Positions 3,495-33,858 of a stretch of DNA of 34,942 nucleotides are shown here, in pieces (the first letter of the stretch is position 1; the number at the start of each line of letters is the position of its first letter). The stretch lies in the sequence record SRR20825006_1652; one strand, written 5' to 3'. The position numbers were made by a program, and so were the translations under genes. The notes under the pieces are model-generated. The model had not been told where the DNA came from, did no database searches, and saw nothing but the letters and a program-made list of their open reading frames with translations.

Positions 3495-6400
3495 TCACTC
3501 GATCGATACATGATAGCGCGAGCGAGACTCGACGCGCACCAGGTCGCGCTTGACCAGCTCACGCACCGCTGGTGGCAGCACCGTCACCTCGGCGTAGTCC
3601 CCGCGTATCACCGCGACCAGGGCGGCGAAGATCTTTGGCGAGCCTCCGAGTTGCCGCGCTCCCTCGGCGTGCAACCTCGCGAGCGCGTCGGCGCTCGCGC
3701 TCGCGTGCTCGTCGAGCAGCCCCGCGAGCGCATCCGGGATCGCCTCGCCAGTCACCGCGAGCAAGTGCACGAGCGCGCGCCGCGTGTGCGCGAACTGCGT
3801 GGCGAGCGCGCTCGTTTCGTGCTGCCGCAACGTCGCGAGCTCTCGCTCGACCTGCGCCTGCGTCGGCATGTTCATCAATGTCTCGGTGTTCCATGGCCCC
3901 GACGAAGGCGCGATGGGAGGCAGCGCGCTCTTGACGTCCGCGCTGCTCGCGGCCGAGGAGGGCGCCATCGGTCGAATCGGCCCCTGCGCGCCAACCGCCG
4001 CATCGAGCGGCATCAGGGCAGGACCCGTCGCGCTCGGCAACACCACGAGCGAGACGAGGTGATCCGGGTTCGCCACGACACCCTCGTCGAGCACCCAACA
4101 CGAGGACACCATCGCCGGTAACCCCAGGTGCCTCAGGATCTCGGTCAACACCGTGTTCAGCTCGTAACAGATCCCTCGCCCCTGCGTCTCATCATCCCTC
4201 GATGCGTGCAAAATCTCGAGGTGGTGGTTTCCTTCGCCAGCCCGCAACCTCGCCTTGGCCTTGGCGACCTCCGGGATCTCCATAAACCCATCGTCATAGA
4301 TGTAATTGGTCTGCACGAACGCCTGCGCCGAGAGCGCCAACTCCCAGGATGACATCGCGCTGTTTCGCTTGGATTCGATGAACCTTCGCGTCGTCGGCGG
4401 CAACTCTCGAAGCTCCAGGGTTGGCTGCAAGAGCGCATCGGGCGGGTCCAGATGTCCCACGTCGCTCGTCAGAATGGGAGGCTCCAGAAGATCGATCGTG
4501 TAGCTGATCTTGACCGGTTTATCCGCCTCGAGGTGCAGCCAGAGCGACCCGTCTTGCCGCTGCTGCGCGCGCATCGAACCTTCTCCCTCGATGATCCTCG
4601 GCGCGCCCGATGGCCTTGCGTATAGCGGCAGCGGGAGCTGGCTGATTCCCGGCGCGATTGTCCCGTGGAAGAGCACCTCTCGCCCGAGAGGTCTCGACTT
4701 CCCGTACCAATCGACAGGCGGTGAGCCTGCCGGCAACCAGTGCTGTGACGCCTCGTCGAAGGTCGCGCCCATCACCTGCGGCGCATAAAGGTGTGGTTTG
4801 GGCAACACCCTCGGCTCGAACCGCAGCGCGATCTCGAGCGGCTTCTTCGAGATGTTTCGGATGCTCTCCTGATTGACCCAGAGCTGAGGTTGGATCGTCG
4901 TCTCGGGCCTCAGCGGGTTCGTCCCTTGCTTTGTCCAACTCGGCGCGTCGACCTCTGGCGCGGTCCCTGCGTTAAAGCCCAACCAACGCTTGAACCTCCC
5001 CCAGGTCGAGTGATCCTCGGGCCGGAGTTGAGGCTCGGGCGCGCTCCGCACCGCTGGGAGCGTCTCCTCGATCACGCGCTCGAAATCAGCGGCTGCTTCC
5101 GGGTTCCTGGACTCGTCCACATACGTCGCGACCCTGGATTGTGGCGCGTCGAAATCACTCGAGTCATTCGACGCGGGCGCTCCCATATCACCGAGCAATT
5201 CTTCGATGAGCTGCGCCGAGGACTCCGAGGACATGATCCCTTCTGCCCAGGATCGATCTCCAGAGGGCGCGAGGACCTGCCCTGGATCGGGCGCCGACGT
5301 TGGCGTCAGCCCGCGATCTTCTGGTCTTGGCGGATGCTCGAGCTGCTCCTGTTCTGTCATCTCGGACGCTGGCGCTTGCTTGACGCTCTCTTCCAGCCAG
5401 TCTGTATCGCTGGTGCTCGCGCGATCGTCAGGATCTTCGAACAGATCGGTAGGGATATCATCGAGGCGCTTCGCCGCCAGGATCGTGGTGAGCGCGTCGA
5501 GCAGTGACTCGCCAGGTTCCTCCACACCCAACATCGCGAGCAAACCGGGCGACACCTTTGCCGACCACGCACCGCGCCCGTTCTCATCCGTTGGAAGCAG
5601 CGCCGCAGTTGCCTCGCGATCTCGCCAGCGCTCGAAGTCCTTGCCCTTGAGCACCGGGAAGCGCTTCACGAGCCGACGATCGAGGTTGTAGTCGAGCACT
5701 TGCCCGAGCCGCTCGGCGAGCTCGTCTGAGGGTTTGCGCGCGGCCGCGACGGCGGGGTAGTGGCGCCTGTCGAGGTGCATCTCCATCTTCTCGAAGTCGC
5801 CGAGCGTCAGGAGCAAGGTCACGACCTCGATCACAGCGTCTTGCTCTGGCCCCTCGTAGATCGCTGGCATCAACCCGAGCGCGAGCCCGGTGGCGCGATC
5901 TCTCGGCGCCACGAGCGCCTCGATATCGACGAGCAGCGCCTTGTTCGCGGCATCCCAGACCGCATCACTGTCCGCGCTGGCGCGCCCGATCCCATCGAGC
6001 ACGTAGGTCACCTCCAGCGAGGCGATCGCGCGGATGGGAGAGGTCGTCGCCAACCCCGCCAGCCGATCCTCGATCCTCCATCTGCCGCGCGTGCTCCCGA
6101 GCTTGAGCTGGATGCGCGGCGCCACCTCACTCAACGCGCGCAACAGCCCGCGCAGAGGTCTGATTCTTGGCAGGAACTCTTCTGTGCGATCCTCTCCAGC
6201 GTTGGCGTTGGTCTCGACGCGGTGCGCCTCGCGCAGCAACCTCAACCCCACGCGTTGATAATAGCGATCGACATCCTCTTGCTGGCCTCTCGCGCCAGAG
6301 CGCGCGACATAGAACGTGGACGTGCTCGCGAAGAGATCCTCCAGGTCCGGCGTGTCACTGCGCAGCAAGAGCTTGTGGTCAGGTGGGAGCAGCCGCCAGC

Positions 6401-9400
6401 TCGCCGCTTTATCTTCTGTGTTCGGTCCCTTCCTCGCGCATAGAATCAATGTCTCGTGTGGGCGATGAAGCGTGCTTGTCTTACCGAGGTAGGCGTAGTT
6501 CGCGAGCAGCATCGCCGGGATCGCGCCATCCGAGAGCACCTCTTTATCCCCCGAGTTCGCCACCTGCGCGCTGATCTGTGCCAGAAAACGATGCACGAAA
6601 GCAGGGCTCGGCTCGCGCTCGATGCCAAACGCGCGGCACAACGTCGGGTAGTTCGATAACCCCTGGCTCCAGTAGCCTCGCCGCGCGCCGAACATCTCCA
6701 TATGTCGACCGCCCAGCACGTCCAGGTGATGAAAGTGCTGGCCGTCATCGGTGTAGACCCAGGCGAGTTCAGCGAGCGTCTGAGTGAGGTGCTCGCTGGT
6801 GAGCTTGTTCTCTTTCAGGCAGAGCTCGAGCCATTGATACACGGGAGGAGGCACCGCGGCGCTCCGCGTCTCGCGATCGGCCAGGTGTCGCCTGACCTGC
6901 TCGAGCGTGACATCGCGCGTCGTCTTGAACCCGATCCTCCTCGCTAGATCCTCGCCCAGGCGCTCGGTGATGTCGGTGTGGGCGTACTCCTCCTTGAAGT
7001 CTCCGATGAGCGAGCGGGCGTTGAGCGAGTCGATAAACACCTCGCCAGGGCGCCTCAAACAGCGCGTTCCATCGAGCACCCACGGGGTTTGATGGAGCGC
7101 CTGTAGCGTCGTGATTCCCTCGACGCCGCGGTCGTTTAGCCTCGCCAGTAAGGTCGAAAGCCCCAGCGCGGTCTGTTCGCTGATATCGCTCGTCGCGAGC
7201 ACGTGCTCGATGTCTGCCAGCGCAGGCATCTCGCGCACACCGAGCACGGATAACAACCCGAAGTCATCCTGGTTGTATCGCTTCGGGTTGGGGACGGGTT
7301 GCCTGGCGCCCCAGATTTGATGCGTGGCCTCCTGCATCGCGCGGGGCACCGCGAATAGCGCATTCGCGCGCACGAAGTCCCCCGTCATGCTCTCGACCTC
7401 CAAGCCATGCCTGGAGAGGATGCGATACATCTCCTTCTTCCCGACGCGCTCGATGCGACCGGCGAGGTAAGAGAAGATCTTGTAGGCGGCCTCGTGGTCC
7501 TTGTCTTGGGTCGCCTCCTTGTAGGTGGGGACCAGGTGCTCGTCACACAACTCTTCGAGCCCCACGGCATCATCCAAACCGAGGTGTCGCGACAGCATGT
7601 GCACGATCTCGGCGGGGATCTCGCCAGAGGGTCGCCAGTCCACGCCGAGGTCCGGCAAGTTCGGGTCGAGGACGAGGTTGCGCGTTGGAAGCAAGCTCCC
7701 ACGTTCAGTGGGGAAGAGCTTGCCTTGCTCGAGCATCTGGCGACAGTCAGGATCCGAGAAGATCTCGCGTTCGTGGTGCTCAAGCCATGCATACAGATTC
7801 TCACGGCGCGTCTTGTCACCGAGCACGGGGTGTTGATCGACGCGCTCCGCGCTCTCTTCTCCCTGACGCAGCGCGGCGATGACCGACTTCATCTCGAGCG
7901 GCTTCCCGATCTTCTGTGCCAGCTCATCCCCGAGCGCCTGCGCGAACTCGGGCGCCATGAGCGTTTCACTCGCGGGGAGCTTCTCGAGGAGTTTGCTCGT
8001 CGCTTCGCTCGCGATGGATAGGCGTTGCTTGACCAGCCTCCCGCGCACGTTGATTTGCGGGAGTGTGGTCTTTTGAGTGATGGCGTCGCGAGCCATCGCG
8101 ATGGCTTTCGCCAGTGAAGAGGCGTTCGAGAGCAACCCTCGCTGCTGCCTGAGTGGTTTTCCAGGCTGTGCGTTGTTCTCGAGCAATTCTAGCAAGAATT
8201 CGGACGCGGACCTCGTCTCGAAGAGTTGGGATAGCGAGAGCAGCGTCTCCGGGGTCTTCGCGCTGACGCTGTCCACCAACGGACGCTCCAGGGCATCCTC
8301 GGGGATCAACTCATCGAGCACGCCTGGTGTGATAAGTTGCGAGGAGCATGTCACACCACCTGCGCGCGTCTCCCAGATCATCAGGTTGGAGAGGGGAGCG
8401 CCTCTGAGCCCGGCGAGTTTCCTGGCGTGTTGTGTAAGCCATGGGAGGATCGCGTCGAGCGCTTCCGGTCGCTGGAGAGGATTCGCGCGCTCTTCTTTCG
8501 GCGCGATTCGGGGGAGCGTGGCGAGGTTTTGGAGCAATCCTTCGAGCCCCATGACCTTTTGCCTGGCGCTGGCGAGCAACCCCTCGATCTTGGAGCGGGT
8601 CGTCGCAGAGAGGCGCCTGTAACCCGCCGCAGCCATGACAGGTGCAGCGTGCGAGTTGAACTGATAGAGCCTGTCCAGCTCCAGCGGTTGCTCCGAGCTC
8701 CAGTCACCGAGCGCTCCGAGCTTTCCGTCATCCCCGACATAGAGCGGCGTGTCGAACAAACGCGTCAGATCCTCGCTCCCGAGCTGGGCGCGGTTGGCCT
8801 CGAGGTAATCCAGGGCATCGCCGCGCTTCGGGCCGAGCAGTGGCAGGTCATCTGGAGATGTCGCCGCGAGGATGGCCTCTCTCTCTGCCCAGAGATCATG
8901 CGCCAGTGATTTCGCGTTCGCCTCCTGGAGAAAGAGGTCGAGCCCGAACGCTGCGACGACGCGCCTGCTGGTGCTCTCTCGCTCGATGAAGTGCCTCGGC
9001 GCTCCGGTTGTCGGGGGCTTGTGATAGAGCGCGCGAAGCTCTGTCGGGGCGTCATGCAGCTCGAGGAGCCGCTTGATACGTCCGCGATCATCGAGAAAGA
9101 GCGGGAGCGTCTCGAGCAGGGCGCGAGATCTGGTCCCGAGCTTGACGTCATCTCCCAGCAGGAGCGCGTGGAGCGCGTCGATGAGCTCGGGGGATGATGA
9201 GACGCGCAGCGGCGCGCTGGCGTCAGGCGCAAAGCCTGACAGCACCGCCGCCGGTCCGAGCACCTCTGCGCCCATCTCGCGCACGTGCGCCATGGCGCAC
9301 ACTTGCTCGTCGAGGAAGTTCGCGTCCGGGAAGAACGCCTTGACCTCGAGCGGGGAGGGGAGGAAGGCGCGCTCTTCTGCGGGCACTCCCTTGAGCTTCC

Positions 9401-12245
9401 TCGGGTTTCCGTCGCTGTCAGGCCAGATGTCCAGCGTCGCGAACGCGTCGCGGGTGGTGTCCGCGATCTGTCGACGCGAGGCTTCGAGCAACCTCTGGAG
9501 CGCGAGCAACGTCTCTCTATCTCGGGTGATGAAGCCCGCGTGTCGCAAGTCTGCGAGCAGGATCTCGAACCCGAGCGCCGGAGGATTGATACGCGCGAGC
9601 AGCGCATCCTGAGCTTCGGAGACGCCGAGCGTGACGAGCGGACGGCGCATCCCATAAAAGCTCGCGAGCTGCGCTTGCTCCTTCGGCACAACCAGGGCGC
9701 CGACGCGATCTGTAGGATCGCTCGCGAGCCTGTGGAGCTTTCCATCTTGTGCCACGAACAGCGGTAACTTCGCGGCGCGCATTTGCAGCGCCCAGTTCGA
9801 CCGAGAGAGCCACGCCTGGATCGCCTCGAGCTTCTCGAGCGATCCTGGAAACCCCACAGCGTCAGCGCTCTCGAGCATGTCTGCCTTGCCGATGACGTGC
9901 TCCAGATCCTTGAGCAGTTGCTCGCCGGTCAATCGCGTCACCCCGAGCCGCGTCAGCAGCGCCGTGGTGCGCGAGGTGATGGAGTTATTGTCAGCGTCTT
10001 CATCGCTCTGCTCGGGAGTTCGTGCGGGGTCGGTATCACTGGCGAGGTCAGGGTGAAGCATCTGCCGCACGCCTTGATAAATCGTCCTCAAGCCAGGTTC
10101 TGGGACGAGGATACTCTTCGCGTCGTGGAGCTTTCCTCTCTCATCCGGGAAGAGCGCGATCTCTCGGAGCTTCTTCTTGAGCGAGATCGCCTGGAGCGAG
10201 TTCTTGCTGCGGTCGAGCTCCTCGAAGCCATCGAGCAGGATGTCATGGATGCGCGAGATGAGCTCGATGTCACCGGCTCGCGCGGCGGCGAGGGGTCTGT
10301 TGTCATCGGCATCCGCAGCGAGCGCGTGCGCGATGATCCCGATGAACCCGTCGAAGTCGAGCTCGCGCACGCCGAGCTGCAAGGCGACCTCGCGCTCTCG
10401 TGGTGAGAGCGTCTCGTCGAGCAACCAGAAGGGGTGGTTGTTGTTGATGTTGGAGAACTTCGAGAGCGCGCCGAGCGGGAAGCTCGCGCCAGGTTCGAAC
10501 AGCGCGCAGATTTCTGGCGAGGCCACCCTGAGCTGGATCGCCATGCGAAGCGTCCCATCTCGGGCGGGAAGGATCGCGCTGCTGGCGAGCTCCCTGGTGA
10601 TCTTTTCCGGGAGCGGCTCGAAGACCTCGGATTTGATCTCGCGCGCGAGAGGCAGCACCGACAGGATGCCTCGCCCGAGGTTTGGTGGTTGCTCCTCGCG
10701 CTGGATGATCCTCTCGAGCGCGCGGCGGATTTGCGTGGGCACGTTGCTCACGATCCATTGATTCCAGTCAGACTCCGGGTTCACGCGCTCGCGATCGACG
10801 GGGACATCGAAGTGTCCCTGGACGAAGAAGCGAAGCCCGGATTGCTCCTCGGTCGGGAGATAACTGTAGACCGTGGCGCTCTCGGGCGGCGCTGGTATCG
10901 GCACGCCGTGCTCGTCGAGCGAGACGCCGACCATGATCAGCGTGCTGTCCGCGCGTCCTGCGGCGCGTTTGCCGCGCGTGTACTTGTAGACATCATCCTG
11001 GATAATGTAGCGCCTGCGCAGGTTCGCCGGGCGCTGTTCGATGGTCGAGATCCCGCGCTCGTCCGGCAACTCCTCGACCGCCGCCCATTTTTGCGGGCCT
11101 CCTTCGACGCGTTCGGTGAGCTCGATCGTCAGCAGGTCGACCCCGCGCAACGTGAACAATACGCAAGGATCGAGCGCGCGCGCCATGGCGTGCAACCTGG
11201 CAGGCGTGCGCGCTGGATCATCGGGATCTTTGAGGGGAAGGATCAGGACGGTGCCATCCTCGGGGAGATCTGCTGGGCGATCACGCAGCAGCTTTGGCAC
11301 GGACACATCGGCGATCTCGAACTGGAACGCGTCCGAGTAAATCCTCGGCCGCGCGGTGACTTCGTAGACCGACTTGAAGCCGACGCCAAAGAAGCCGATC
11401 TGATCCTTGCGCTTGGTGGTCTGGCCGATGCTCGTGACGCCGACGAGATCGCGAGCGTCGAACGGGTTGCCATCATGCCAGACGATGATCCTGTCCACGT
11501 CAAAGATCACGCGCCAGTGCTTCGCGCCCGCGTCCTCGGCGTTCTGGAGCAGCTCGATAAGGAAGTGTCCTGGGTCGGTGTAGACGCGCGTGGAGAGGAG
11601 CTCCTCGGCGTTCGACTGCGAGATCGCCTTCGGGGCGTTCCCGAGCGTCTCGATGACTGCCCTGGCCATGGCCGCGCGCGCTGTGTCGAAGCCCTCGAGG
11701 CACTCCTGGGAGTGCGCCCTGGCGATCTCTCGAAGCTCGGGGACCGCGCGACCAGATAACTGCGCGAGCATATCACTCGAGAGCGCGCTGAGGTCTCCTG
11801 TTTGGAGCGCATGTCTTGTGGCTTGAATGATGTTTGCCACGTGCGCATCCCGCGCCTCGGAAAAGTTGTGCTTCAGGGAGCGATCGATCAGACACATCGA
11901 CGAGATGCGCTCGACGGGCACGACGCGCAGCATCTCGAGCAGCGCTTCGCACAGATCCTGGCCGCGCTCGGAGGACTCGGAGGCGCGCTCGAGCATCGAG
12001 CGCACCACCCGGTGGACCGCGGTCTCTGGCTGGTCGAGCAAGAACTTCGAGAAGACGACGCGGTGCTCGTTGTGCGCGAGCCAACCCTTGGCAAGCAGCT
12101 CACCACAGAGCCAGGCGAGCGGCGCCCAGTCGCGGATGCTCGCCGCCAGTTTGAGCAGCTCCCCGGCGGGCGTTTTGTCAAAGTTTCCAGAGAGGTGCTC
12201 GAGTTGTTCGTCGAGCGGTAGTGCGGCGAACGCATCAGGTGTCAT
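3495..12245 (-). CDS. Giant (~2,916 aa) protein: sacsin-type GHKL/Hsp90-like ATPase, internal repeats and C-terminal transglutaminase-like domain
   Basis: GHKL motifs ELLQNAEDAGA, HDGNPFDARDLVGVTSIGQTTK and IGFFGVGFKSVYEVT-x-PRIYS, plus the sacsin-like FFVQGHFDVPVDRE-x-WNQW. The C-terminus has GICYELN...PDHLVSLV...PLDAA. ATG 12245 has GAGG 7 nt upstream (the ORF track starts at 12284). Confidence 0.85.
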   Translation of the reverse strand: MTPDAFAALPLDEQLEHLSGNFDKTPAGELLKLAASIRDWAPLAWLCGELLAKGWLAHNEHRVVFSKFLLDQPETAVHRVVRSMLERASESSERGQDLCEALLEMLRVVPVERISSMCLIDRSLKHNFSEARDAHVANIIQATRHALQTGDLSALSSDMLAQLSGRAVPELREIARAHSQECLEGFDTARAAMARAVIETLGNAPKAISQSNAEELLSTRVYTDPGHFLIELLQNAEDAGAKHWRVIFDVDRIIVWHDGNPFDARDLVGVTSIGQTTKRKDQIGFFGVGFKSVYEVTARPRIYSDAFQFEIADVSVPKLLRDRPADLPEDGTVLILPLKDPDDPARTPARLHAMARALDPCVLFTLRGVDLLTIELTERVEGGPQKWAAVEELPDERGISTIEQRPANLRRRYIIQDDVYKYTRGKRAAGRADSTLIMVGVSLDEHGVPIPAPPESATVYSYLPTEEQSGLRFFVQGHFDVPVDRERVNPESDWNQWIVSNVPTQIRRALERIIQREEQPPNLGRGILSVLPLAREIKSEVFEPLPEKITRELASSAILPARDGTLRMAIQLRVASPEICALFEPGASFPLGALSKFSNINNNHPFWLLDETLSPREREVALQLGVRELDFDGFIGIIAHALAADADDNRPLAAARAGDIELISRIHDILLDGFEELDRSKNSLQAISLKKKLREIALFPDERGKLHDAKSILVPEPGLRTIYQGVRQMLHPDLASDTDPARTPEQSDEDADNNSITSRTTALLTRLGVTRLTGEQLLKDLEHVIGKADMLESADAVGFPGSLEKLEAIQAWLSRSNWALQMRAAKLPLFVAQDGKLHRLASDPTDRVGALVVPKEQAQLASFYGMRRPLVTLGVSEAQDALLARINPPALGFEILLADLRHAGFITRDRETLLALQRLLEASRRQIADTTRDAFATLDIWPDSDGNPRKLKGVPAEERAFLPSPLEVKAFFPDANFLDEQVCAMAHVREMGAEVLGPAAVLSGFAPDASAPLRVSSSPELIDALHALLLGDDVKLGTRSRALLETLPLFLDDRGRIKRLLELHDAPTELRALYHKPPTTGAPRHFIERESTSRRVVAAFGLDLFLQEANAKSLAHDLWAEREAILAATSPDDLPLLGPKRGDALDYLEANRAQLGSEDLTRLFDTPLYVGDDGKLGALGDWSSEQPLELDRLYQFNSHAAPVMAAAGYRRLSATTRSKIEGLLASARQKVMGLEGLLQNLATLPRIAPKEERANPLQRPEALDAILPWLTQHARKLAGLRGAPLSNLMIWETRAGGVTCSSQLITPGVLDELIPEDALERPLVDSVSAKTPETLLSLSQLFETRSASEFLLELLENNAQPGKPLRQQRGLLSNASSLAKAIAMARDAITQKTTLPQINVRGRLVKQRLSIASEATSKLLEKLPASETLMAPEFAQALGDELAQKIGKPLEMKSVIAALRQGEESAERVDQHPVLGDKTRRENLYAWLEHHEREIFSDPDCRQMLEQGKLFPTERGSLLPTRNLVLDPNLPDLGVDWRPSGEIPAEIVHMLSRHLGLDDAVGLEELCDEHLVPTYKEATQDKDHEAAYKIFSYLAGRIERVGKKEMYRILSRHGLEVESMTGDFVRANALFAVPRAMQEATHQIWGARQPVPNPKRYNQDDFGLLSVLGVREMPALADIEHVLATSDISEQTALGLSTLLARLNDRGVEGITTLQALHQTPWVLDGTRCLRRPGEVFIDSLNARSLIGDFKEEYAHTDITERLGEDLARRIGFKTTRDVTLEQVRRHLADRETRSAAVPPPVYQWLELCLKENKLTSEHLTQTLAELAWVYTDDGQHFHHLDVLGGRHMEMFGARRGYWSQGLSNYPTLCRAFGIEREPSPAFVHRFLAQISAQVANSGDKEVLSDGAIPAMLLANYAYLGKTSTLHRPHETLILCARKGPNTEDKAASWRLLPPDHKLLLRSDTPDLEDLFASTSTFYVARSGARGQQEDVDRYYQRVGLRLLREAHRVETNANAGEDRTEEFLPRIRPLRGLLRALSEVAPRIQLKLGSTRGRWRIEDRLAGLATTSPIRAIASLEVTYVLDGIGRASADSDAVWDAANKALLVDIEALVAPRDRATGLALGLMPAIYEGPEQDAVIEVVTLLLTLGDFEKMEMHLDRRHYPAVAAARKPSDELAERLGQVLDYNLDRRLVKRFPVLKGKDFERWRDREATAALLPTDENGRGAWSAKVSPGLLAMLGVEEPGESLLDALTTILAAKRLDDIPTDLFEDPDDRASTSDTDWLEESVKQAPASEMTEQEQLEHPPRPEDRGLTPTSAPDPGQVLAPSGDRSWAEGIMSSESSAQLIEELLGDMGAPASNDSSDFDAPQSRVATYVDESRNPEAAADFERVIEETLPAVRSAPEPQLRPEDHSTWGRFKRWLGFNAGTAPEVDAPSWTKQGTNPLRPETTIQPQLWVNQESIRNISKKPLEIALRFEPRVLPKPHLYAPQVMGATFDEASQHWLPAGSPPVDWYGKSRPLGREVLFHGTIAPGISQLPLPLYARPSGAPRIIEGEGSMRAQQRQDGSLWLHLEADKPVKISYTIDLLEPPILTSDVGHLDPPDALLQPTLELRELPPTTRRFIESKRNSAMSSWELALSAQAFVQTNYIYDDGFMEIPEVAKAKARLRAGEGNHHLEILHASRDDETQGRGICYELNTVLTEILRHLGLPAMVSSCWVLDEGVVANPDHLVSLVVLPSATGPALMPLDAAVGAQGPIRPMAPSSAASSADVKSALPPIAPSSGPWNTETLMNMPTQAQVERELATLRQHETSALATQFAHTRRALVHLLAVTGEAIPDALAGLLDEHASASADALARLHAEGARQLGGSPKIFAALVAVIRGDYAEVTVLPPAVRELVKRDLVRVESRSRYHVSIE

Positions 12246-12331
12246 CGGATGACCTCTTGCAACAACTTGTGCTGTGACAGGCATCCTTGATACACCATGG
12301 TGTGCCTCGGGGCGATCATGGATTCGAGGGC

Positions 12332-17907: not shown

Positions 17908-18005
17908 GTAGAGAGCGCTTACTTTCCGAGCTGACGAAACATCCCGGGGCTTTCTGCCGAAAACCCTCTCGAGCGCCAATGCAGGCGTGTCGTGAGGGTT
18001 TTTAT

Positions 18006-19019
18006 ATGTCCAAGAGCGCAGATTATGATGGGGCGTACCGGCGGTTGTTCTCCAACCCCGAATTGTTGGAAGACCTGGTCCGTTCGTTTATCGGTGAGGA
18101 GGTCGCGGCCAAGCTCGATTTTGGCGAGGTCGACGCGATGGAGACGACCTCTCGCACACCGGACCTGGAGAAGCGGGAGGGAGACCAGATCTGGCGCATC
18201 CGAAGAGTGGATGGCGCTGACTTTTATCTGTTTCTCTTCCTGGAGTTTCAATCCAGCAATGATTTTACGATGCCCGTGCGTCTTTTTTCTTACACTTCGA
18301 GGTTTTATGATGTGTTGATGAAGCAGCAGGGCGATGTCGAGTCACTGCGCTTCTCTCCCATGTTCGCGGTGGTGATTTACAATGGCGTCTCGAAGTGGAG
18401 CGCGAAGGAGTCCTTTGAAGAACTCCTCGATGTCGACGAGTCCTCCGAGCTCTGGGAGTATCAACCGAAATTAAGGTATCGCCTGGTCGATGCGGCCAGA
18501 GCGTTACCGGACAAGGAGAGCATGACATCGCTGATCTTTCAGCTCGAGCATGCATCGAGCAAGGAGGCTGTCGGCAAGCGCCTCGATGAGTTTCGAGAGA
18601 AGCTGGTCGCTTCGGGAAACGCGAGTCTCATCGAGGATGTCGCGATATGGATCGAAGCTGTGTTGGAGCGTAAGCCTCACGGGCATAGCCCGACAAAAGA
18701 ACAGATCGAACACTTTTTGGAAGGAAGTACGATGGGGACACACAAACTCGGTATCGACCTGCTCTTTGACAGGTTGGAAGAAGAGGCGAGCGAGAGGGGG
18801 CTCGCGAAGGGGATGGAGCAAGGTCTCGAGCAGGGCCAGAAGTCTGGGATGCGTCAGGTGCTCGGGACGCTCCTCGAGCAGAAGTTCGGGGAGGATAAGG
18901 AGCGCGCCGCCCGGCTCGCGCTCCTCGATGAAGATGCGCTTCGGGCGGCGTCCACGTTGATCCTCGGCGCTGAGACTGAAGATGTCTTCTGGTCCGAGCT
19001 CGATGATGCCCTGAAGTAG
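18006..19019 (+). CDS. Rpn/YhgA-family PD-(D/E)XK nuclease (recombination-promoting nuclease / putative transposase)
   Basis: YDGAYRRLFSNPELLEDLV, REGDQIWRI, FLEFQSSND-x-MPVRLFSY, VVIYNG-x-W, and the C-terminal ERGLAKGMEQGLEQGQKSG repeats followed by LLEQKFG. SD GAGG before ATG 18006. Confidence 0.88.
   Translation: MSKSADYDGAYRRLFSNPELLEDLVRSFIGEEVAAKLDFGEVDAMETTSRTPDLEKREGDQIWRIRRVDGADFYLFLFLEFQSSNDFTMPVRLFSYTSRFYDVLMKQQGDVESLRFSPMFAVVIYNGVSKWSAKESFEELLDVDESSELWEYQPKLRYRLVDAARALPDKESMTSLIFQLEHASSKEAVGKRLDEFREKLVASGNASLIEDVAIWIEAVLERKPHGHSPTKEQIEHFLEGSTMGTHKLGIDLLFDRLEEEASERGLAKGMEQGLEQGQKSGMRQVLGTLLEQKFGEDKERAARLALLDEDALRAASTLILGAETEDVFWSELDDALK
18732..19019 (+). CDS. Putative in-frame internal small protein (RpnS-type antitoxin, 95 aa)
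   Basis: In-frame ATG 18732 is preceded by purine-rich GGAAGGAAG (18719-18727), just upstream of the E-x-G repeats. This is where internal starts occur in characterised Rpn genes. Confidence 0.55.
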   Translation: MGTHKLGIDLLFDRLEEEASERGLAKGMEQGLEQGQKSGMRQVLGTLLEQKFGEDKERAARLALLDEDALRAASTLILGAETEDVFWSELDDALK

Positions 19020-29366: not shown

Positions 29367-30713
29367 ATGGGTTATGTGAGGATTATCTGGCTCGTGTCGA
29401 TGCTCGGGTTGTTGTCAGGGTGTGAGCCCAAGAAGGAGCAGAAGTCAGACGCCTCCTCGGGCCAGACGGCGGCCACGACAAAGGATGGTGGCAACAAGGC
29501 GGGGCCAGAGAGCGCGCAGAAGGAGGATGTCGGCGAGGAGGATGTCGATGTTCACCTGCGCATCTTGCGAGATTTGCAGGGGTGTGACGCCAAGGCTGAG
29601 GAGTTCTGGTGTGGCGTGGCGAGCGCGATGGCAAAGCGGCAGGCTGGGGCGTTGCCCGATGCCTCGATGGTGCAGCTCGGGTGGACGGTGTTCATCCCCA
29701 CGCAGGCCAAGCCAGAGGCTGCCAGGCTCGCTGGCGAGCCGATCGCGTTGGGGCTAAACCTCAGCAAGGATCAGGAGCCGCGCGCGCAGGTCACGCATGT
29801 CATCGCGCGAAATCCCGAGAACGCCAACAAGATCAAGGGCCTCGGGAAGCAGGTCGGAGACATCCTGAAGGGGAATCAACCCCCCAGCGAGCCGGTCATT
29901 GTTCACGATCCACAATTGCTCGCCTACCTCCAGGATCAAGCAGCGCGCGCCACGAACGCGATCTCCAAGGAAGGCAAGGGGTGGTCTATCGCGGACGAGA
30001 AGCACACGAGGCTCTACCAACTCGCGGGCGGGAAGTGGGCGAGCGTCCACAGGGTGAGGCCGAGGCCCGAACGCCCGGACGGGATCTGGCTCTCGGTGTA
30101 TACTCCAGTGGAGTTATCTGGCGAGGTCGCGCCGAAGAAGGAGATCGATCTGGCGGCGGTGACGGCCAAGTTCGACTGCACGCATAATGCCGTGCAAGTC
30201 AAGCTGTGTAAGGGGTTCTCACGCTTTGAAGACGCAAAGAAGCCCGAGGCGATGACGGGCAAGGTCGAAGGATTGCGCGTATACTTTGGAGAGATCCAGG
30301 ATTCCGAATCGCTGCCATCTCCAGAGACGATGTATGGCGCGTTGTTGATTCGCGGCGGCGAGGATGGCGCCGAGATCGCGTTCAGCGTGGTGATTCCCAG
30401 CAGCGACGAGGAGCGCGAGGCGCTCGAGGCGTTGCAGAAAGGGGTCGAGAAGGGAGAGGCGATCCAGAAGAACGCGGCGCTCGACTACCTGATGGGGATC
30501 ACCAAGCACCCCTCGGCGTTCGGGAGCGTGACTCAGAGCGAGGGGACGAGCGCGTTGGTGCTGCGTCGAGGGTTGTTCCAGGGGGGACCTGACGAGCGAA
30601 CGATCTCCTATTTTCGAGCCGAGGGCGATCGATATCTCGCGGTGACGCACGAACATATCGGCGGAAAGGTGTGGTTCTGGGATCTTGGCCCGGTCAAGCT
30701 GCCGGGCAAGTGA
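29367..30713 (+). CDS. Hypothetical lipoprotein with an apparent internal domain duplication
   Basis: SD GGAGG and lipobox LSGC. Two similar halves each open with a C-x8/9-C pair. Confidence 0.75.
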   Translation: MGYVRIIWLVSMLGLLSGCEPKKEQKSDASSGQTAATTKDGGNKAGPESAQKEDVGEEDVDVHLRILRDLQGCDAKAEEFWCGVASAMAKRQAGALPDASMVQLGWTVFIPTQAKPEAARLAGEPIALGLNLSKDQEPRAQVTHVIARNPENANKIKGLGKQVGDILKGNQPPSEPVIVHDPQLLAYLQDQAARATNAISKEGKGWSIADEKHTRLYQLAGGKWASVHRVRPRPERPDGIWLSVYTPVELSGEVAPKKEIDLAAVTAKFDCTHNAVQVKLCKGFSRFEDAKKPEAMTGKVEGLRVYFGEIQDSESLPSPETMYGALLIRGGEDGAEIAFSVVIPSSDEEREALEALQKGVEKGEAIQKNAALDYLMGITKHPSAFGSVTQSEGTSALVLRRGLFQGGPDERTISYFRAEGDRYLAVTHEHIGGKVWFWDLGPVKLPGK

Positions 30714-30726
30714 CCCGATTTTGAAT

Positions 30727-30749
30727 TTGTCTGTACTTTTGTTCAGTCT
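30727..30749 (+). promoter_or_regulatory. Putative LexA (SOS) box overlapping a candidate promoter
   Basis: CTGTACTTTTGTTCAG (30731-30746) fits CTG-N10-CAG and matches 15/17 of the Myxococcus LexA consensus CTRHAMRYBYGTTCAGS (recalled). It sits within TTGAAT-N17-CAGTCT (30721-30749). Confidence 0.6.
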
Positions 30750-30837
30750 TTTGTTTAAAGTCGAGGGATGAGACATGCCTCGTGACAGGGACGTTTGGGG
30801 TGTAGGAGGAGGTCGCGACTCACGAGAGGAAGGAACG

Positions 30838-31956
30838 GTGATAGAGATCAAGAGCACGAAGCAGGTGGTGGATGATTTTGGGCTCAAAATCCTGGTGCAT
30901 GGCCCTCCCGGTGTGGGGAAGACGCGCCTTTGCGTGACCACGGGGGACATCGATAACACGCTTATCATAAGCGCCGAGGGCGGGTTGCTCTCGATCAAGG
31001 ACTGGGATGTGGATGTGGCGCAGGTGCGCAACGTCAATGACGTCTATCAGGTCTACGAGTTTTTAAAGCAGGGCGAGCACGATTACACGTGGGTGTGTCT
31101 GGATTCGATCTCCGAGATCGCCGAGGTGATCTTGCAGGGGGAGAAGCTTCGCAACCGTGATGGTCGGCGCGCGTATGGCGAGATGGCGGACACGGTGTTC
31201 GACCTGCTGCGAGGGTTTCGCAACTTGCCATACCACGTGGTGATGACGGCCAAGCAGGGGCGCGAGGAGATCGATGGTCGCGTGCTGCACGCGCCGATGT
31301 TGCCTGGTCGTCAGCTCACGCTGAACATCGCCTATTTGTTCGACGAGGTCTTCGCGTTGCGCGTGGAGACGAACCAGGAGGGCGAGCTTATTCGCGTGTT
31401 GCAGACGGGGAAGAGCCGCTCGTTCGAGGCCAAGGATCGCTCCGGCAAGCTCGGGATGTACGAGCAGGCAAACCTCGAATCGATCCACCGCAAGATCGCC
31501 GGGTTGCCCGAACTCGTGGTCGAGGAGGACGAGGAAGAGGAGATCGTCCAGACGAACAAGGAGGGGGACGTCAAGCGGATCGCGGTGCCTCCGGCGACGG
31601 ATAGAAAGCGCGTCACCTCGAGCGGGGATGGCGAGACCAAACGCATCGGCGGTGGCGCAGCGAGCGAGCTGCGTCGCACGAACCTTCGCCGCAAGCTGTT
31701 CATGTTGCTCAAGGAGGCGGGCATCAAGAACGCGATGATCACCGAATACATCACCGCGCGTTGCGAGCGCGAGGTCGGCGTCGAGGGGGTCAATGATGTG
31801 CCCATCGAGATCCTCGAGCTGTGGGCGCAGGAGCTCGATATCCCCTCGAAACCTGCCGATGGCGCCAAGTTCTCACCGCGCAGGATGCATATCAACGCCA
31901 CCATCAAGCTCTGGAAGGAGTGGAAGGGGAACCAGCAGCAACCCGCCTCGGCCTGA
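30838..31956 (+). CDS. Phage-type AAA_24/Sak4-like P-loop ATPase with a C-terminal helical extension
   Basis: LKILVHGPPGVGKT (Walker A), IISAEGGLLSI, WVCLDSISEIAE (Walker B), AYGEM, YLFDEVFALRV and AKDRSGKL. GTG 30838 has SD GAGGAAGG. Confidence 0.85.
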   Translation: MIEIKSTKQVVDDFGLKILVHGPPGVGKTRLCVTTGDIDNTLIISAEGGLLSIKDWDVDVAQVRNVNDVYQVYEFLKQGEHDYTWVCLDSISEIAEVILQGEKLRNRDGRRAYGEMADTVFDLLRGFRNLPYHVVMTAKQGREEIDGRVLHAPMLPGRQLTLNIAYLFDEVFALRVETNQEGELIRVLQTGKSRSFEAKDRSGKLGMYEQANLESIHRKIAGLPELVVEEDEEEEIVQTNKEGDVKRIAVPPATDRKRVTSSGDGETKRIGGGAASELRRTNLRRKLFMLLKEAGIKNAMITEYITARCEREVGVEGVNDVPIEILELWAQELDIPSKPADGAKFSPRRMHINATIKLWKEWKGNQQQPASA

Positions 31957-31977
31957 GACCGACACTGATTTTTGCTT

Positions 31978-32565
31978 ATGACTGATTTTACCGCGCATAC
32001 GCTCGCAGATGGCGAGCACGAGGTGTTGACCGCCCGCTTGCCCGAGGACTTGCTCGCGCGAACCTCGTTCGACTTCTGGTGGTCGCTTCACCCCGAAGAG
32101 TTCTCACAGATCATGATTCATGGTCGCATGGTCGAGATCCCGCGTTGGCAGCAGGCGTATGGCAAGGATTATCGGTTCTCCGGTACAGTCAACGAGGCGC
32201 TCGACCTCACCCCCGAGATGGAAGAGGTGCTCTCCTGGTGCCAGGAGGCGATCGATGGCCGCCTCAATGGGTTATTGTTCAACTGGTATGATGGCGCGCA
32301 GGATCACTACATCGGCGCGCACCGGGACTCTCGCCAGGGGCTTGTTCAGGACACGCCGATCGTCACGATCTCACTCGGCGAGGAGCGCCCCTTTCGCATG
32401 AGACCTTACAGGCAGAAGGGCTTCGAGGATTTTATCGTCGGTGATGGGGATGTGTTGGTGATACCGTGGGAGACCAACCTGACGCATACGCACGAGGTCC
32501 CGAACGCGGCGCGATACACCGAGCGTCGCATCTCGATCACAGCGCGTGCGTTCGAAGATGATTGA
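31978..32565 (+). CDS. AlkB-family 2OG-Fe(II) dioxygenase (ALKBH2/3-like)
   Basis: IPRWQQAYG, LFNWY (NxY), IGAHRD (HxD), ISLGEERPF, HTHEVP (distal His) and RRISITAR (RxxxxxR). Confidence 0.88.
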   Translation: MTDFTAHTLADGEHEVLTARLPEDLLARTSFDFWWSLHPEEFSQIMIHGRMVEIPRWQQAYGKDYRFSGTVNEALDLTPEMEEVLSWCQEAIDGRLNGLLFNWYDGAQDHYIGAHRDSRQGLVQDTPIVTISLGEERPFRMRPYRQKGFEDFIVGDGDVLVIPWETNLTHTHEVPNAARYTERRISITARAFEDD

Positions 32566-32574
32566 GTTTTCGCG

Positions 32575-33207
32575 ATGCCCACCGAATCAGATCCGCTCCT
32601 CGGCTTTCTAAGAACACTGGCGCGCGAGCGCGATGATTTCTTCGCGCACCTCCAGTTCCAACGTGTCTTCGATGTAAGCGCCGCCCCGAATGTTCTCGTC
32701 TTGCATCTCTGTGCGCCGGGGCTCTCACCGATCTCGATCGGGCGCACCGATGACCTCTACGGTGATGTGTGTGGCTCCATCCCCGTTCCGTTTGGAGATG
32801 GTCGATCGAGCATCATTTTTGGCGACGCGAACATTTTCGAGAACTGGCAGAACGCCAGCGTGCAGAATGGCGCCTCACAGGAGGCGACCGCGGTGCTGTT
32901 TTGGAGCGAGGAAGGGGCGGATGCGGTCACTGATATGTGGGCATCTTTCGGGATCGCTGGCAACACCGTTCATTCCTTCGAACATGCGTTATACCCGCGT
33001 TATTTGGGGTCGCGGCGAGTCTTTCGAGCAAGCTCGAAGAGCCCCTGGGGAGATGTGCTCGATGGATTGGGGGCGTTGGTTGCCATGTGGCGCGATGCCC
33101 CATTCGAGCAGCGCTGGAGGCAGGATCATGGCGAGCAGGGGAACGGGTTCTCTGTGCTCCGAGTCGGTGATCGGGGCGTGTTGTTGGCGCTGCGACTCGG
33201 GGGTTGA
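32575..33207 (+). CDS. Hypothetical protein
   Basis: 210-aa ORF starting 9 nt after the AlkB-like stop and filling the gap. No recognisable motif. Confidence 0.5.
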   Translation: MPTESDPLLGFLRTLARERDDFFAHLQFQRVFDVSAAPNVLVLHLCAPGLSPISIGRTDDLYGDVCGSIPVPFGDGRSSIIFGDANIFENWQNASVQNGASQEATAVLFWSEEGADAVTDMWASFGIAGNTVHSFEHALYPRYLGSRRVFRASSKSPWGDVLDGLGALVAMWRDAPFEQRWRQDHGEQGNGFSVLRVGDRGVLLALRLGG

Positions 33208-33246
33208 GTGGGCGTGCGTATTTCTGCATGACCTGCGTCGTGCCGA

Positions 33247-33328
33247 GCAAAACAAGCCGCGCAGAAGTTTTTGTGAACGGTCGAGATGACTGGAACGTCC
33301 ACAAAAACTTCTGCGCGGCTTGTTTTGC
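33247..33328. terminator. Long hairpin (29-bp perfect inverted repeat), probable terminator
   Basis: 33247-33275 is the reverse complement of 33300-33328. Small inner GTC/GAC hairpin; ends in TGTTTT. Confidence 0.75.
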
Positions 33329-33337
33329 GGGCCGAGG

Positions 33338-33360
33338 TTGTCGGCAAATTTGTTCAGACT
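33338..33360 (+). promoter_or_regulatory. Second putative LexA-type box, upstream of the macrodomain gene
   Basis: TTGTCGGCAAATTTGTTCAGACT shares 18/23 nt with 30727-30749. Its core 33342-33358 matches 15/17 of the recalled Myxococcus consensus. Confidence 0.5.
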
Positions 33361-33399
33361 CTCGGTGTTCATCGAGGTGGATTAATCGAAAGAGGTAGA

Positions 33400-33858
33400 A
33401 TGAAGGTTATTCGAGGAGATTTGCTGGCGTTGGCGATGGATGGGACCTTCGATGTGATCGTACACGGCGCGAATTGCCAGTGCACGATGGGCGCTGGGAT
33501 CGCCAGAGCGATCAAGGAGCTGTTCCCGGCAGCCTATGAGGCGGACTCGAAAACCACCGCTGGCGATGGCGACAAGCTCGGGACGCTCTCGTGGGCCGAG
33601 GTCACGCTGTGCGGCGGTGACGCACTCGTCGTTGTGAATGCCTACACGCAGCTTCACTGGCGAGGCCGAGGGGTCAAGGTCGACTATGACGCTGTGCGTT
33701 CTGCGATGCGCGCGGTGAAGGCGAAGTTTTCAGGTTCGCGCATCGGGTATCCGCGCATCGGCGCGGGTTTGGCTGGCGGTGATTGGGACGTGATCGCTGC
33801 GATCATCGACGAGGAGCTCGCTGGCGAGGATCATACGCTCGTCGAGTATGCGCCTTGA
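33400..33858 (+). CDS. Macrodomain protein (Poa1p/TARG1/phage-like ADP-ribose-processing family)
   Basis: IRGDLL, IVHGANCQCTMGAGIARAIK, VVNAYTQ and YPRIGAGLAGGDW. SD GAGG before ATG 33400. Confidence 0.9.
   Translation: MKVIRGDLLALAMDGTFDVIVHGANCQCTMGAGIARAIKELFPAAYEADSKTTAGDGDKLGTLSWAEVTLCGGDALVVVNAYTQLHWRGRGVKVDYDAVRSAMRAVKAKFSGSRIGYPRIGAGLAGGDWDVIAAIIDEELAGEDHTLVEYAP

Follow-up and report, generated by a model that had tools for sequence, protein, structure and literature searches.

In Escherichia coli, alkB is part of the Ada adaptive-response operon, and AlkB enzymes act on or prefer single-stranded DNA (ssDNA). Among the annealing proteins of phages, the Sak4 protein of HK620 is stimulated by its cognate single-stranded DNA-binding protein (SSB; PMC5928155). 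The macrodomain protein SCO6735 is reported to be induced 5-fold by ultraviolet (UV) light and to cleave thymidine-linked ADP-ribose on DNA (PMC5087735, PMC9411070), with Gln85 as an essential residue (PMC9411070), and a damage-inducible macrodomain that counters ADP-ribosylating, DarT-like toxins has already been proposed for this protein (PMC9411070, PMC11833690). In D. radiodurans, DRB0100-DRB0099(PARG)-DRB0098 is described as a damage-induced operon with a proposed role in defence against toxic ADP-ribosylation (PMC11833690), and the SOS box printed for M. xanthus is CTRHAMRYBYGTTCAGS (PMC9705874). This report concerns a locus in a 34,942-nucleotide stretch of DNA from sequence record SRR20825006_1652 (hereafter the window), at which genes for an elongated Sak4-type ATPase (Sak4-long), an AlkB-like dioxygenase, an orphan protein (ORF3), and a stand-alone macrodomain protein are adjacent. 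These genes probably belong to a lineage-specific SOS regulon as two independent units under LexA control, which are neighbours in this genome and form no conserved module.

The four open reading frames (ORFs; 30838-33858) are co-directional on the plus strand, with a gap of 21 nt between Sak4-long and the AlkB-like gene (TGA 31956 to ATG 31978) and of 9 nt between the AlkB-like gene and ORF3 (TGA 32565 to ATG 32575). An initial annotation of the DNA had described this arrangement, with a box before the first gene and a hairpin and a second box before the macrodomain gene, and the arrangement was confirmed; its assignment of Sak4-like, AlkB-like, and TARG1/DarG-class macrodomain proteins was likewise upheld by profile and structure matches. 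Unit 1 would be an operon consisting of a domesticated, elongated Sak4-type ATPase, an AlkB-like demethylase, and ORF3, and unit 2 would be a stand-alone SCO6735/TARG1-class macrodomain hydrolase behind the hairpin. The computed results are the assignment of the proteins to families, the intact state of their catalytic motifs, the matches to the operator and how far these are conserved, and a lack of conserved synteny. In the mechanism that we infer from these results, LexA binding, induction, and substrates are predictions: DNA damage would lead to RecA filaments and thereby to self-cleavage of LexA, and both units would be derepressed. Sak4-long would then bind or anneal ssDNA, the AlkB-like enzyme would revert lesions of the 1-methyladenine/3-methylcytosine (1-meA/3-meC) type, and the macrodomain protein would cleave ADP-ribose off proteins or off thymidine in ssDNA.

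LexA-type operators before the two proposed units

The source organism is a marine Bradymonadales-like bacterium, and the genomes nearest to the window are G001, an uncultured metagenome-assembled genome (MAG), and G002, an uncultured member of the Bradymonadales. A weight matrix for the LexA operator was built from the regions upstream of 31 lexA genes from the same order, in which 45 of 48 genomes have lexA; the input comprised 67 candidate 18-mers (61 distinct) ending in GTTCA-NN, of which 52 distinct sequences were kept and 9 with scores below 8 bits were dropped. With this matrix, box 1 scores 18.1 bits and box 2 scores 17.1 bits, making them the top two sites on both strands of the window, and the next site scores 9.1 bits. 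Sites of at least 17 bits occurred on average 0.04 times and at most once in 300 dinucleotide shuffles, compared with the two observed. Both boxes are on the coding strand and precede genes at a short distance (90 and 41 nt before the starts); their common 9-mer, TTTGTTCAG, has exactly two occurrences in the window versus 0.11 expected. The LexA-like boxes claimed in the initial annotation fit the clade's LexA operator very well.

By our own count, 30 of the 31 lexA upstream regions contain a site of at least 13 bits, usually two in tandem over the promoter, and nearly all of them display a tandem (T/G)ACA-N3-GTTCAG pair over a TTGAC...TAnnnT promoter. Operator 2 is similar to the distal boxes of the CTGCAAGCCTGTTCAG type that precede lexA at two of the loci (L117 and L121). 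When the matrix was checked on recA, a site of 19.2-21.5 bits was present just 5' of the gene in three of four genomes; no matrix site was found near recA of G001. A stricter pattern, CTGTAYNNNNGTTCAG, yielded five matches in G001 and G002 (the box of the G001 AlkB gene, one match before a RuvC-like start in G002, one intergenic match, and two intracoding matches that are probably due to chance) and was replaced by the matrix as too narrow. The matches support the view that the two boxes belong to the operator type of the clade's LexA, which would be expected to bind them and to render the genes inducible.

The operators can also be followed across relatives. All Sak4-long orthologues with upstream DNA (L001/L020, L021, and L019) have a box, which is ATTGAACTTATGTTCAGT in L001/L020 (61-62% identity; 16.8 bits, overlapping TTGAAC-18-TATGGT in L001) and GGTGAACTTGTGTTCAGT in L021 (60% identity; 15.6 bits), in both cases 100-120 nt before the start, and in the strain represented by L019 both boxes are identical to those of the window. 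The AlkB orthologue of G001 (59% identity) has a box of its own, ACTGTATAAGTGTTCAGC, with 14.1 bits and at ~25 nt before the ATG. Both intergenic regions are free of substitutions between the window and L019, compared with 5-13 differences in each of the genes. Judged from these sequences, the association with an SOS box appears well supported for Sak4-long, is supported in one further lineage for the AlkB-like gene, and seems to be specific to the window's own lineage for the macrodomain gene.

Several observations weigh against this interpretation. The matrix was derived from the lexA promoters of relatives, and the window organism's own lexA and wider regulon lie outside the comparison; additionally, the anchoring on GTTCA was chosen after the boxes had been seen, so that the right half of the matrix is partly fixed by construction and the recA matches are the only unbiased validation. 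No matrix site was found upstream of the dinB-like IMS genes of three genomes, and a scan for the sigma-70 consensus detected no promoter hexamers at either box of the window. No site of at least 11 bits precedes the AlkB orthologues of G044 and G048 or the macrodomain orthologue of G044 (70% identity, the sole one), giving a box upstream of one of three AlkB orthologues (i.e., that of G001) and of none of one macrodomain orthologue. Finally, among the contigs of four metatranscriptome runs (from four studies of environmental samples without damage treatment), one from run X18 extends from the upstream gene across box 1 (30623-30824), which fits LexA-independent read-through or DNA carry-over.

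The undetected hexamers, the X18 contig, and the boxless orthologues of G044 and G048 would all agree with the boxes being non-functional look-alikes, that is, chance sites or relics next to terminators, with expression being constitutive or due to read-through, and one site of at least 17 bits is indeed present in 4% of shuffled windows. Such an explanation is very improbable, given that two such sites were found in 0 of 300 shuffles, that both are correct in strand and position, that three lineages keep the box before Sak4-long and G001 has it before its AlkB gene as well, and that the intergenic regions are free of the substitutions seen in the genes when compared with L019.

Table 1. Positions of the operators, genes, and hairpin in the window.
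Feature	Position	Strand	Description
LexA-box-like operator 1, TCTGTACTTTTGTTCAGT	30730-30747	+	~90 nt 5' of the likely GTG start of Sak4-long
Sak4-long gene	30838-31956	+	RecA-like AAA_24 ATPase with acidic low-complexity linker and C-terminal four-helix domain
AlkB-like Fe(II)/2-oxoglutarate dioxygenase, 195 aa	31978-32565	+	assigned by Pfam and motifs
ORF3, 210-aa orphan protein	32575-33207	+	no family match
Long hairpin	33247-33328		29-bp perfect arms, extendable to 39 nt at 92%; A-tract/T-tract flanks
LexA-box-like operator 2, TCGGCAAATTTGTTCAGA	33341-33358	+	41 nt 5' of ATG 33400 of the macrodomain gene
Stand-alone ALC1/TARG1-like macrodomain, 152 aa	33400-33858	+	assigned by Pfam Macro and solved relatives

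Separate loci in relatives and the boundary between the proposed units

The initial annotation had interpreted the four genes as a damage-inducible kit for removing adducts from ssDNA and re-annealing it, which might counter alkylating or ADP-ribosylating toxins of prey, competitors, or phages. Spelled out in full, this reading would have the AlkB and macrodomain enzymes take off alkyl and ADP-ribosyl adducts, Sak4-long carry out the annealing, and ORF3 act as an accessory, with the integrated kit having been selected as a whole against such toxins. The tight packing of the first three genes (21 and 9 nt) and the same type of operator on both units are also expected of a functional kit and in this respect count against independent units. 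Moreover, ssDNA is acted on or preferred by the characterised relatives (Sak4, PMC5928155; SCO6735, PMC9411070) as it is by AlkB enzymes, and DarG-like genes, and so probably DarT toxins, are present in 5 of the 48 order genomes. The contigs from RNA libraries also bear on this point. At an identity of at least 99%, they cover the 3' end of the macrodomain gene as well as parts of Sak4-long and the AlkB-like gene, and in run X17 one contig bridges Sak4-long and the AlkB-like gene (31920-32144) and another bridges the AlkB-like gene and ORF3 (32532-32695). These bridging contigs are compatible with an operon and lend it weak support, as DNA may be present in RNA libraries; contigs provide no information on strand, transcript ends, or induction, and are no proof of a single transcript. 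The region 32696-33615, containing most of ORF3, the hairpin, and the 5' end of the macrodomain gene, is not covered by any contig in any of the four runs.

The distribution of the genes argues that such a kit is unlikely. Close orthologues of Sak4-long were found in only 2 of the 48 genomes of the order and, across the phylum, in 2 of 401 sampled genomes. At neither of the orthologous loci that extend downstream is an AlkB gene located beside Sak4-long: in G002 (locus L002), Sak4-long is followed by a deoxynucleoside-kinase-like gene and an opposite-strand MFS-like gene (as judged from sequence), and in L021 the next gene is an ORF for a secreted protein. The G001 contig ends past Sak4-long, and its AlkB gene is on another contig among genes for Smr-like, Cys-rich, and GST-like proteins (as read from translations), each of the two having its own box. 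An orthologue of the macrodomain gene is present in 1 of the 48 order genomes (G044), on a different contig from the AlkB gene of the same genome, and with the window proteins as queries neither a macrodomain relative nor ORF3 was found in G001 or G002. Amongst 80 loci recovered in a metagenome scan, 3 have the long form of Sak4 (L019-L021); the other 77 match the ATPase core only, and no match to AlkB, ORF3, or the macrodomain was found at these 77 loci. The four-gene kit is thus not conserved, and relatives keep the genes at separate loci; the idea of a single cooperating kit was not borne out, and the co-occurrence in related genomes that the initial annotation had itself proposed as a test is largely absent.

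A comparison with L019 separates the two units further. This strain has ~900 extra bases (8434-9331) in place of 24 unrelated bases in the window (33208-33231), and the insert contains, between ORF3 and the hairpin, a 266-aa ORF on the opposite strand (8453-9253) with a lipoprotein-like N-terminus and without a Pfam, NCBIfam, or PADLOC match. Identity to the window is 99.35% to the left of the insert point and 97.4% on the side of the macrodomain and CDF genes, and the insert and the drop in identity together point to a boundary, formed by recombination or an indel, exactly where the two units meet, suggesting that these have separate histories.

The hairpin located at this boundary has arms of 39 nt (33247-33285 and 33290-33328) that are 92% complementary, and a predicted RNA fold of -77.1 kcal/mol (z -11.0). 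Its probable role is that of an insulator or bidirectional terminator, closing unit 1 and shielding the promoter of unit 2. In L019, however, the hairpin lies between divergent genes and thus terminates neither of them; in a terminator scan, the only terminator-like match was a 5-bp stem overlapping box 2. Comparable long hairpins are found directly before the boxes of both the Sak4-long and the AlkB genes of G001. The hairpin of the G001 AlkB gene (L003 1321-1372) shares with that of the window the 12-mer GAAGTTTTTGTG and AAAACA...TGTTTT flanks, and among 137 loci this 12-mer is present only in the window hairpin, at the G001 site (L003 and L010 being one site), and in L019. The shared hairpin may be a terminator design in general use in the clade, or hairpin and operator may travel as a single piece. 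The 24-nt loop (33276-33299 in the window, 9376-9399 in L019) is the exact reverse complement in L019 with the 29-bp arms being identical, which amounts to a small inversion between inverted repeats, via template switching or recombination across the arms.

Protein families and chromosomal setting

The likely start of Sak4-long is GTG 30838 (372 aa) rather than the ATG 30775 of the longest ORF (393 aa), since it coincides with the conserved M-x-I-K/T start in an alignment of 27 long Sak4 forms (alignment A1) and is preceded by AGGAAGG 7 nt upstream. The protein matches Pfam AAA_24 (E 2.4e-23, 83.4 bits versus a cut-off of 27) and PHROG phrog_124, 'Sak4-like ssDNA annealing protein' (E 6.2e-49), while NCBIfam phage_P_loop scores 38.8 bits versus a cut-off of 138.75. 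Walker A (GPPGVGKT, residues 22-29) and Walker B (VCLDS, residues 86-90) motifs are present, and a Foldseek search of its structure model against the PDB returned the Sak4 annealing protein 8rc5 as the top match, followed by Rad51 paralogues, RadA, and RecA. In the AlphaFold2 (AF2) model of the 393-aa ORF, ten-residue blocks over 301-380 have an average predicted local distance difference test (pLDDT) score of 88-94, and the C-terminal domain consists of four helices (H294-314 to H368-388, numbered as in the 393-aa ORF). This four-helix domain, listed at window positions 31717-32001 and with the motif ELRR..LRR.L..LLKE...Y..ARCE...W..EL, is conserved in the clade of long Sak4 forms (~27 metagenomic homologues, 40-97% identical). 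No Pfam family matches the domain, and the Foldseek search with the whole model gave RecA-like matches only and none for the C-terminal domain. GemA- and ERF-associated phage helical domains were considered as its family, with template modelling (TM) scores in the Atlas of 0.43-0.55, below the threshold, and none was named.

Ten synonymous and no non-synonymous differences separate the Sak4-long gene from that of L019, and five and none, respectively, separate the AlkB-like genes, a pattern indicating that both are under purifying selection. The evidence supports Sak4-long as a predicted Sak4-type annealing ATPase that has been domesticated by its host, and as the most interesting element of the locus. 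No match to the SSB family was found among the neighbouring ORFs scanned.

The AlkB-like protein matches Pfam 2OG-FeII_Oxy_2 (E 1.3e-14, 55.4 bits versus a cut-off of 31.2) and phrog_21963, 'alkylated DNA repair' (E 4e-15). The expected motifs are present (H115-x-D117, H172 in HTHEV, and R184/R190 in RISITAR), and the best solved relatives are chains of human ALKBH2 (E 5.7e-09), with HRD, the second His, and R..R aligned. PADLOC CARF_2OG matches the same domain (E 4.4e-09), and the 2OG family includes enzymes with other substrates. The label 'phage-type' was not kept for this gene, as a search of 50,697 phage records gave no match at E 1e-5.

ORF3 has no match in PHROG, NCBIfam, PADLOC, or Pfam (the latter to E 10), and its only relatives among 1.84 billion representative proteins are P0001 (99%) and P0122, the latter being the sole distant relative (42% identity, 194 aa, full length). 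The G+C content at third codon positions (GC3) of ORF3 is 0.68, compared with 0.75-0.81 in the neighbouring genes, and the comparison with L019 gives five synonymous and three non-synonymous differences; ORF3 looks like a coding gene that is less constrained than Sak4-long and the AlkB-like gene. An AF2 model from three sequences reached a pLDDT of 36, and the ESM Atlas gave scores of at most 0.79 and no usable lead. A DarT-like toxin was considered for ORF3 and is unsupported, with no match to DUF4433 or any other Pfam family at E up to 10.

The macrodomain protein likely starts at ATG 33400 and not at 33286, since the G044 orthologue starts at the matching MKI. It matches Pfam Macro (E 3.6e-07, 30.6 bits versus a cut-off of 22) and phrog_335 (E 1.2e-51), and its best solved relatives are SCO6735 (5e3b, E 5.4e-07, the closest), BT1257, DarG, and TARG1. 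The ADP-ribose-binding loops GAGIA and RIGAGLAGG are intact. Where TARG1 (K84) and DarG (K80) have their catalytic Lys, the protein has Gln84 (NAYTQ), which points to the SCO6735 subtype rather than the TARG1/DarG subtype; this Gln is aligned to the Gln of MIGQ in BT1257, and the alignment to SCO6735 itself puts it two residues off. As for DarG itself, the NCBIfam model scores 47.3 bits versus a cut-off of 250, and the PADLOC model matches (E 3.4e-13) over the macrodomain part only. DarG-like macrodomain matches were also obtained in five of the 48 order genomes (G016, G017, G020, G030, and G045; loci L133-L137), inside open frames of 355-388 aa with 25-34% identity to the window macrodomain, and from these frames DarTG-type systems seem to circulate in the order.

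The window has a G+C content of ~60%, and near-identical DNA (at least half of the sampled words) is present in 13 sequencing runs, those that are labelled being marine and hydrothermal-vent metagenomes. The locus is flanked on the 5' side by genes for a thiol peroxidase, an S8 subtilase, and a 448-aa lipoprotein-like protein, and on the 3' side by a CDF transporter gene on the opposite strand; glutamyl-tRNA synthetase (GluRS), peptidases, and a LysR regulator are encoded farther out. These flanking genes are ordinary chromosomal genes, and the order thiol peroxidase (-), S8 subtilase (+), Sak4-long (+) is common to the window and G001. No tRNA gene was found in the window, no integrase or phage structural family was matched in Pfam by the 22 window proteins scanned, and a PADLOC scan found no defence system. 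The sole Pfam match to a mobile element in the window is a YhgA-like Transposase_31 ORF ~12 kb away. Given the synteny with G001 and the lack of phage structural, integrase, and tRNA genes, the locus is chromosomal and not a prophage.

The setting bears on another alternative, in which the locus is a mobile or conflict islet whose phage-type genes (Sak4 and a Tk.4-like macrodomain) are phage or satellite remnants, or in which the macrodomain is an orphan antitoxin or immunity gene against DarT-like ADP-ribosyltransferases with ORF3 as a degenerate or novel toxin or partner, the boxes reflecting SOS control in the style of phages. Sak4 is a phage family, a tblastn search with the macrodomain protein matched 2756 of 50,697 phage records (46-49% identity; some annotated 'Tk.4' or 'phosphatase'), DarG is the best name for this protein in NCBIfam and PADLOC, all four genes are patchily distributed, and strain-level indel variation is seen beside the hairpin. 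Against these points stand the lack of integrase, phage structural, and tRNA genes, with the transposase-like ORF being distant, the syntenic position of Sak4-long in G001, the absence of the AlkB-like protein from the same phage records, the lack of a DarT (DUF4433) or other Pfam match in ORF3, a macrodomain protein of 152 aa without the C-terminal domain of DarG, and the absence of a PADLOC system. Such an islet is therefore quite unlikely.

Other features of the window were recorded as well. The 448-aa lipoprotein-like ORF (29367-30713), between the subtilase gene and Sak4-long, has no Pfam or PHROG family and is missing at the syntenic locus of G001, where Sak4-long directly follows the subtilase gene. 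The ORF for the YhgA-like putative transposase (Transposase_31, PD-(D/E)XK type; 17979-19019) adjoins an opposite-strand gene for an 804-aa DUF4132 protein, and a giant ORF of 2929 aa on the minus strand (3495-12284) has a Sacsin domain as its only Pfam match (E 1.4e-13).

Comparison with described systems

Two putative LexA-controlled units that happen to be neighbours leave room for a broader, tentative and rather doubtful suggestion, namely that the lineage recruited a phage Sak4 with a new C-terminal helical domain, an AlkB enzyme, and a SCO6735-type de-ADP-ribosylase into its SOS response, and that these may form a lesion-erasing branch against alkylating or ADP-ribosylating conflict toxins, with ORF3 as a part of it. 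The toxin-countering role put forward in the initial annotation is in print for macrodomains of the SCO6735 class (PMC9411070, PMC11833690), but it is not supported as the function of a whole kit, the genes of which largely fail to co-occur in relatives. In the literature searched, which lay outside most subscription journals, neither Sak4/AAA_24 nor AlkB genes were found described with a LexA box, a review that treats alkB makes no mention of control by LexA in its passages on this gene, and nothing was found on the SOS response of the Bradymonadales. If LexA control is true, the locus would give this little-studied marine group three SOS members that are not reported for M. xanthus in the available text on its regulon (PMC9705874), i.e., a domesticated phage-type ATPase with a new domain, an AlkB-type demethylase, and a macrodomain that de-ADP-ribosylates DNA or proteins. 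It would also provide a second, independently evolved damage-inducible enzyme of the SCO6735 class (under RecA-NDp in Streptomyces and LexA here), which would strengthen the view that such enzymes protect the genome. In the Sak4-long clade there is a tractable example of a host that has taken over a phage recombinase, and the locus as a whole indicates that co-regulated neighbouring genes need not form a module.

Compared with the known systems one by one, Sak4-long resembles the phage Sak4 proteins (HK620; S. aureus 8rc5) in its RecA-like AAA_24 core with Walker A and B motifs, and short phage forms are 50-60% identical to it over the N-terminal 56%. In contrast to the core-only phage proteins (~220-250 aa), it has ~150 extra residues, comprising the acidic linker and the four-helix C-terminal domain, and whereas phage Sak4 is encoded in a recombination module beside an SSB gene, Sak4-long is chromosomal, syntenic, and LexA-boxed, with AlkB and ORF3 as neighbours. 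The AlkB-like protein keeps the HxD...H iron triad and the R-x5-R 2-oxoglutarate motif of AlkB and ALKBH2, but it is only ~195 aa long, has no NCBIfam equivalog, and sits behind a LexA-type box. The operators are similar to the M. xanthus SOS box in being asymmetric and ending in GTTCAG, and by our own reading each window box fits 15 of the 17 positions printed (PMC9705874).

The macrodomain protein shares with SCO6735 its stand-alone form and Gln type; SCO6735 is damage-inducible and takes ADP-ribose off thymidine in DNA, and for the window protein such an activity is predicted. According to the published descriptions, SCO6735 is driven by an actinobacterial RecA-NDp promoter, whereas the window gene has a LexA-type box, and the sequence identity between the two is low. 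The likeness to DarTG lies in the best NCBIfam and PADLOC name, DarG, and in the same macrodomain class, but the window has no DarT gene, no DarG C-terminal domain, and a Gln instead of Lys80 of DarG. The D. radiodurans operon, as described, similarly combines an ADP-ribose hydrolase with nucleic-acid repair enzymes under damage induction; it differs in consisting of a ligase, PARG, and a kinase-phosphatase under another regulator, whereas the macrodomain gene of the window is a separate unit.

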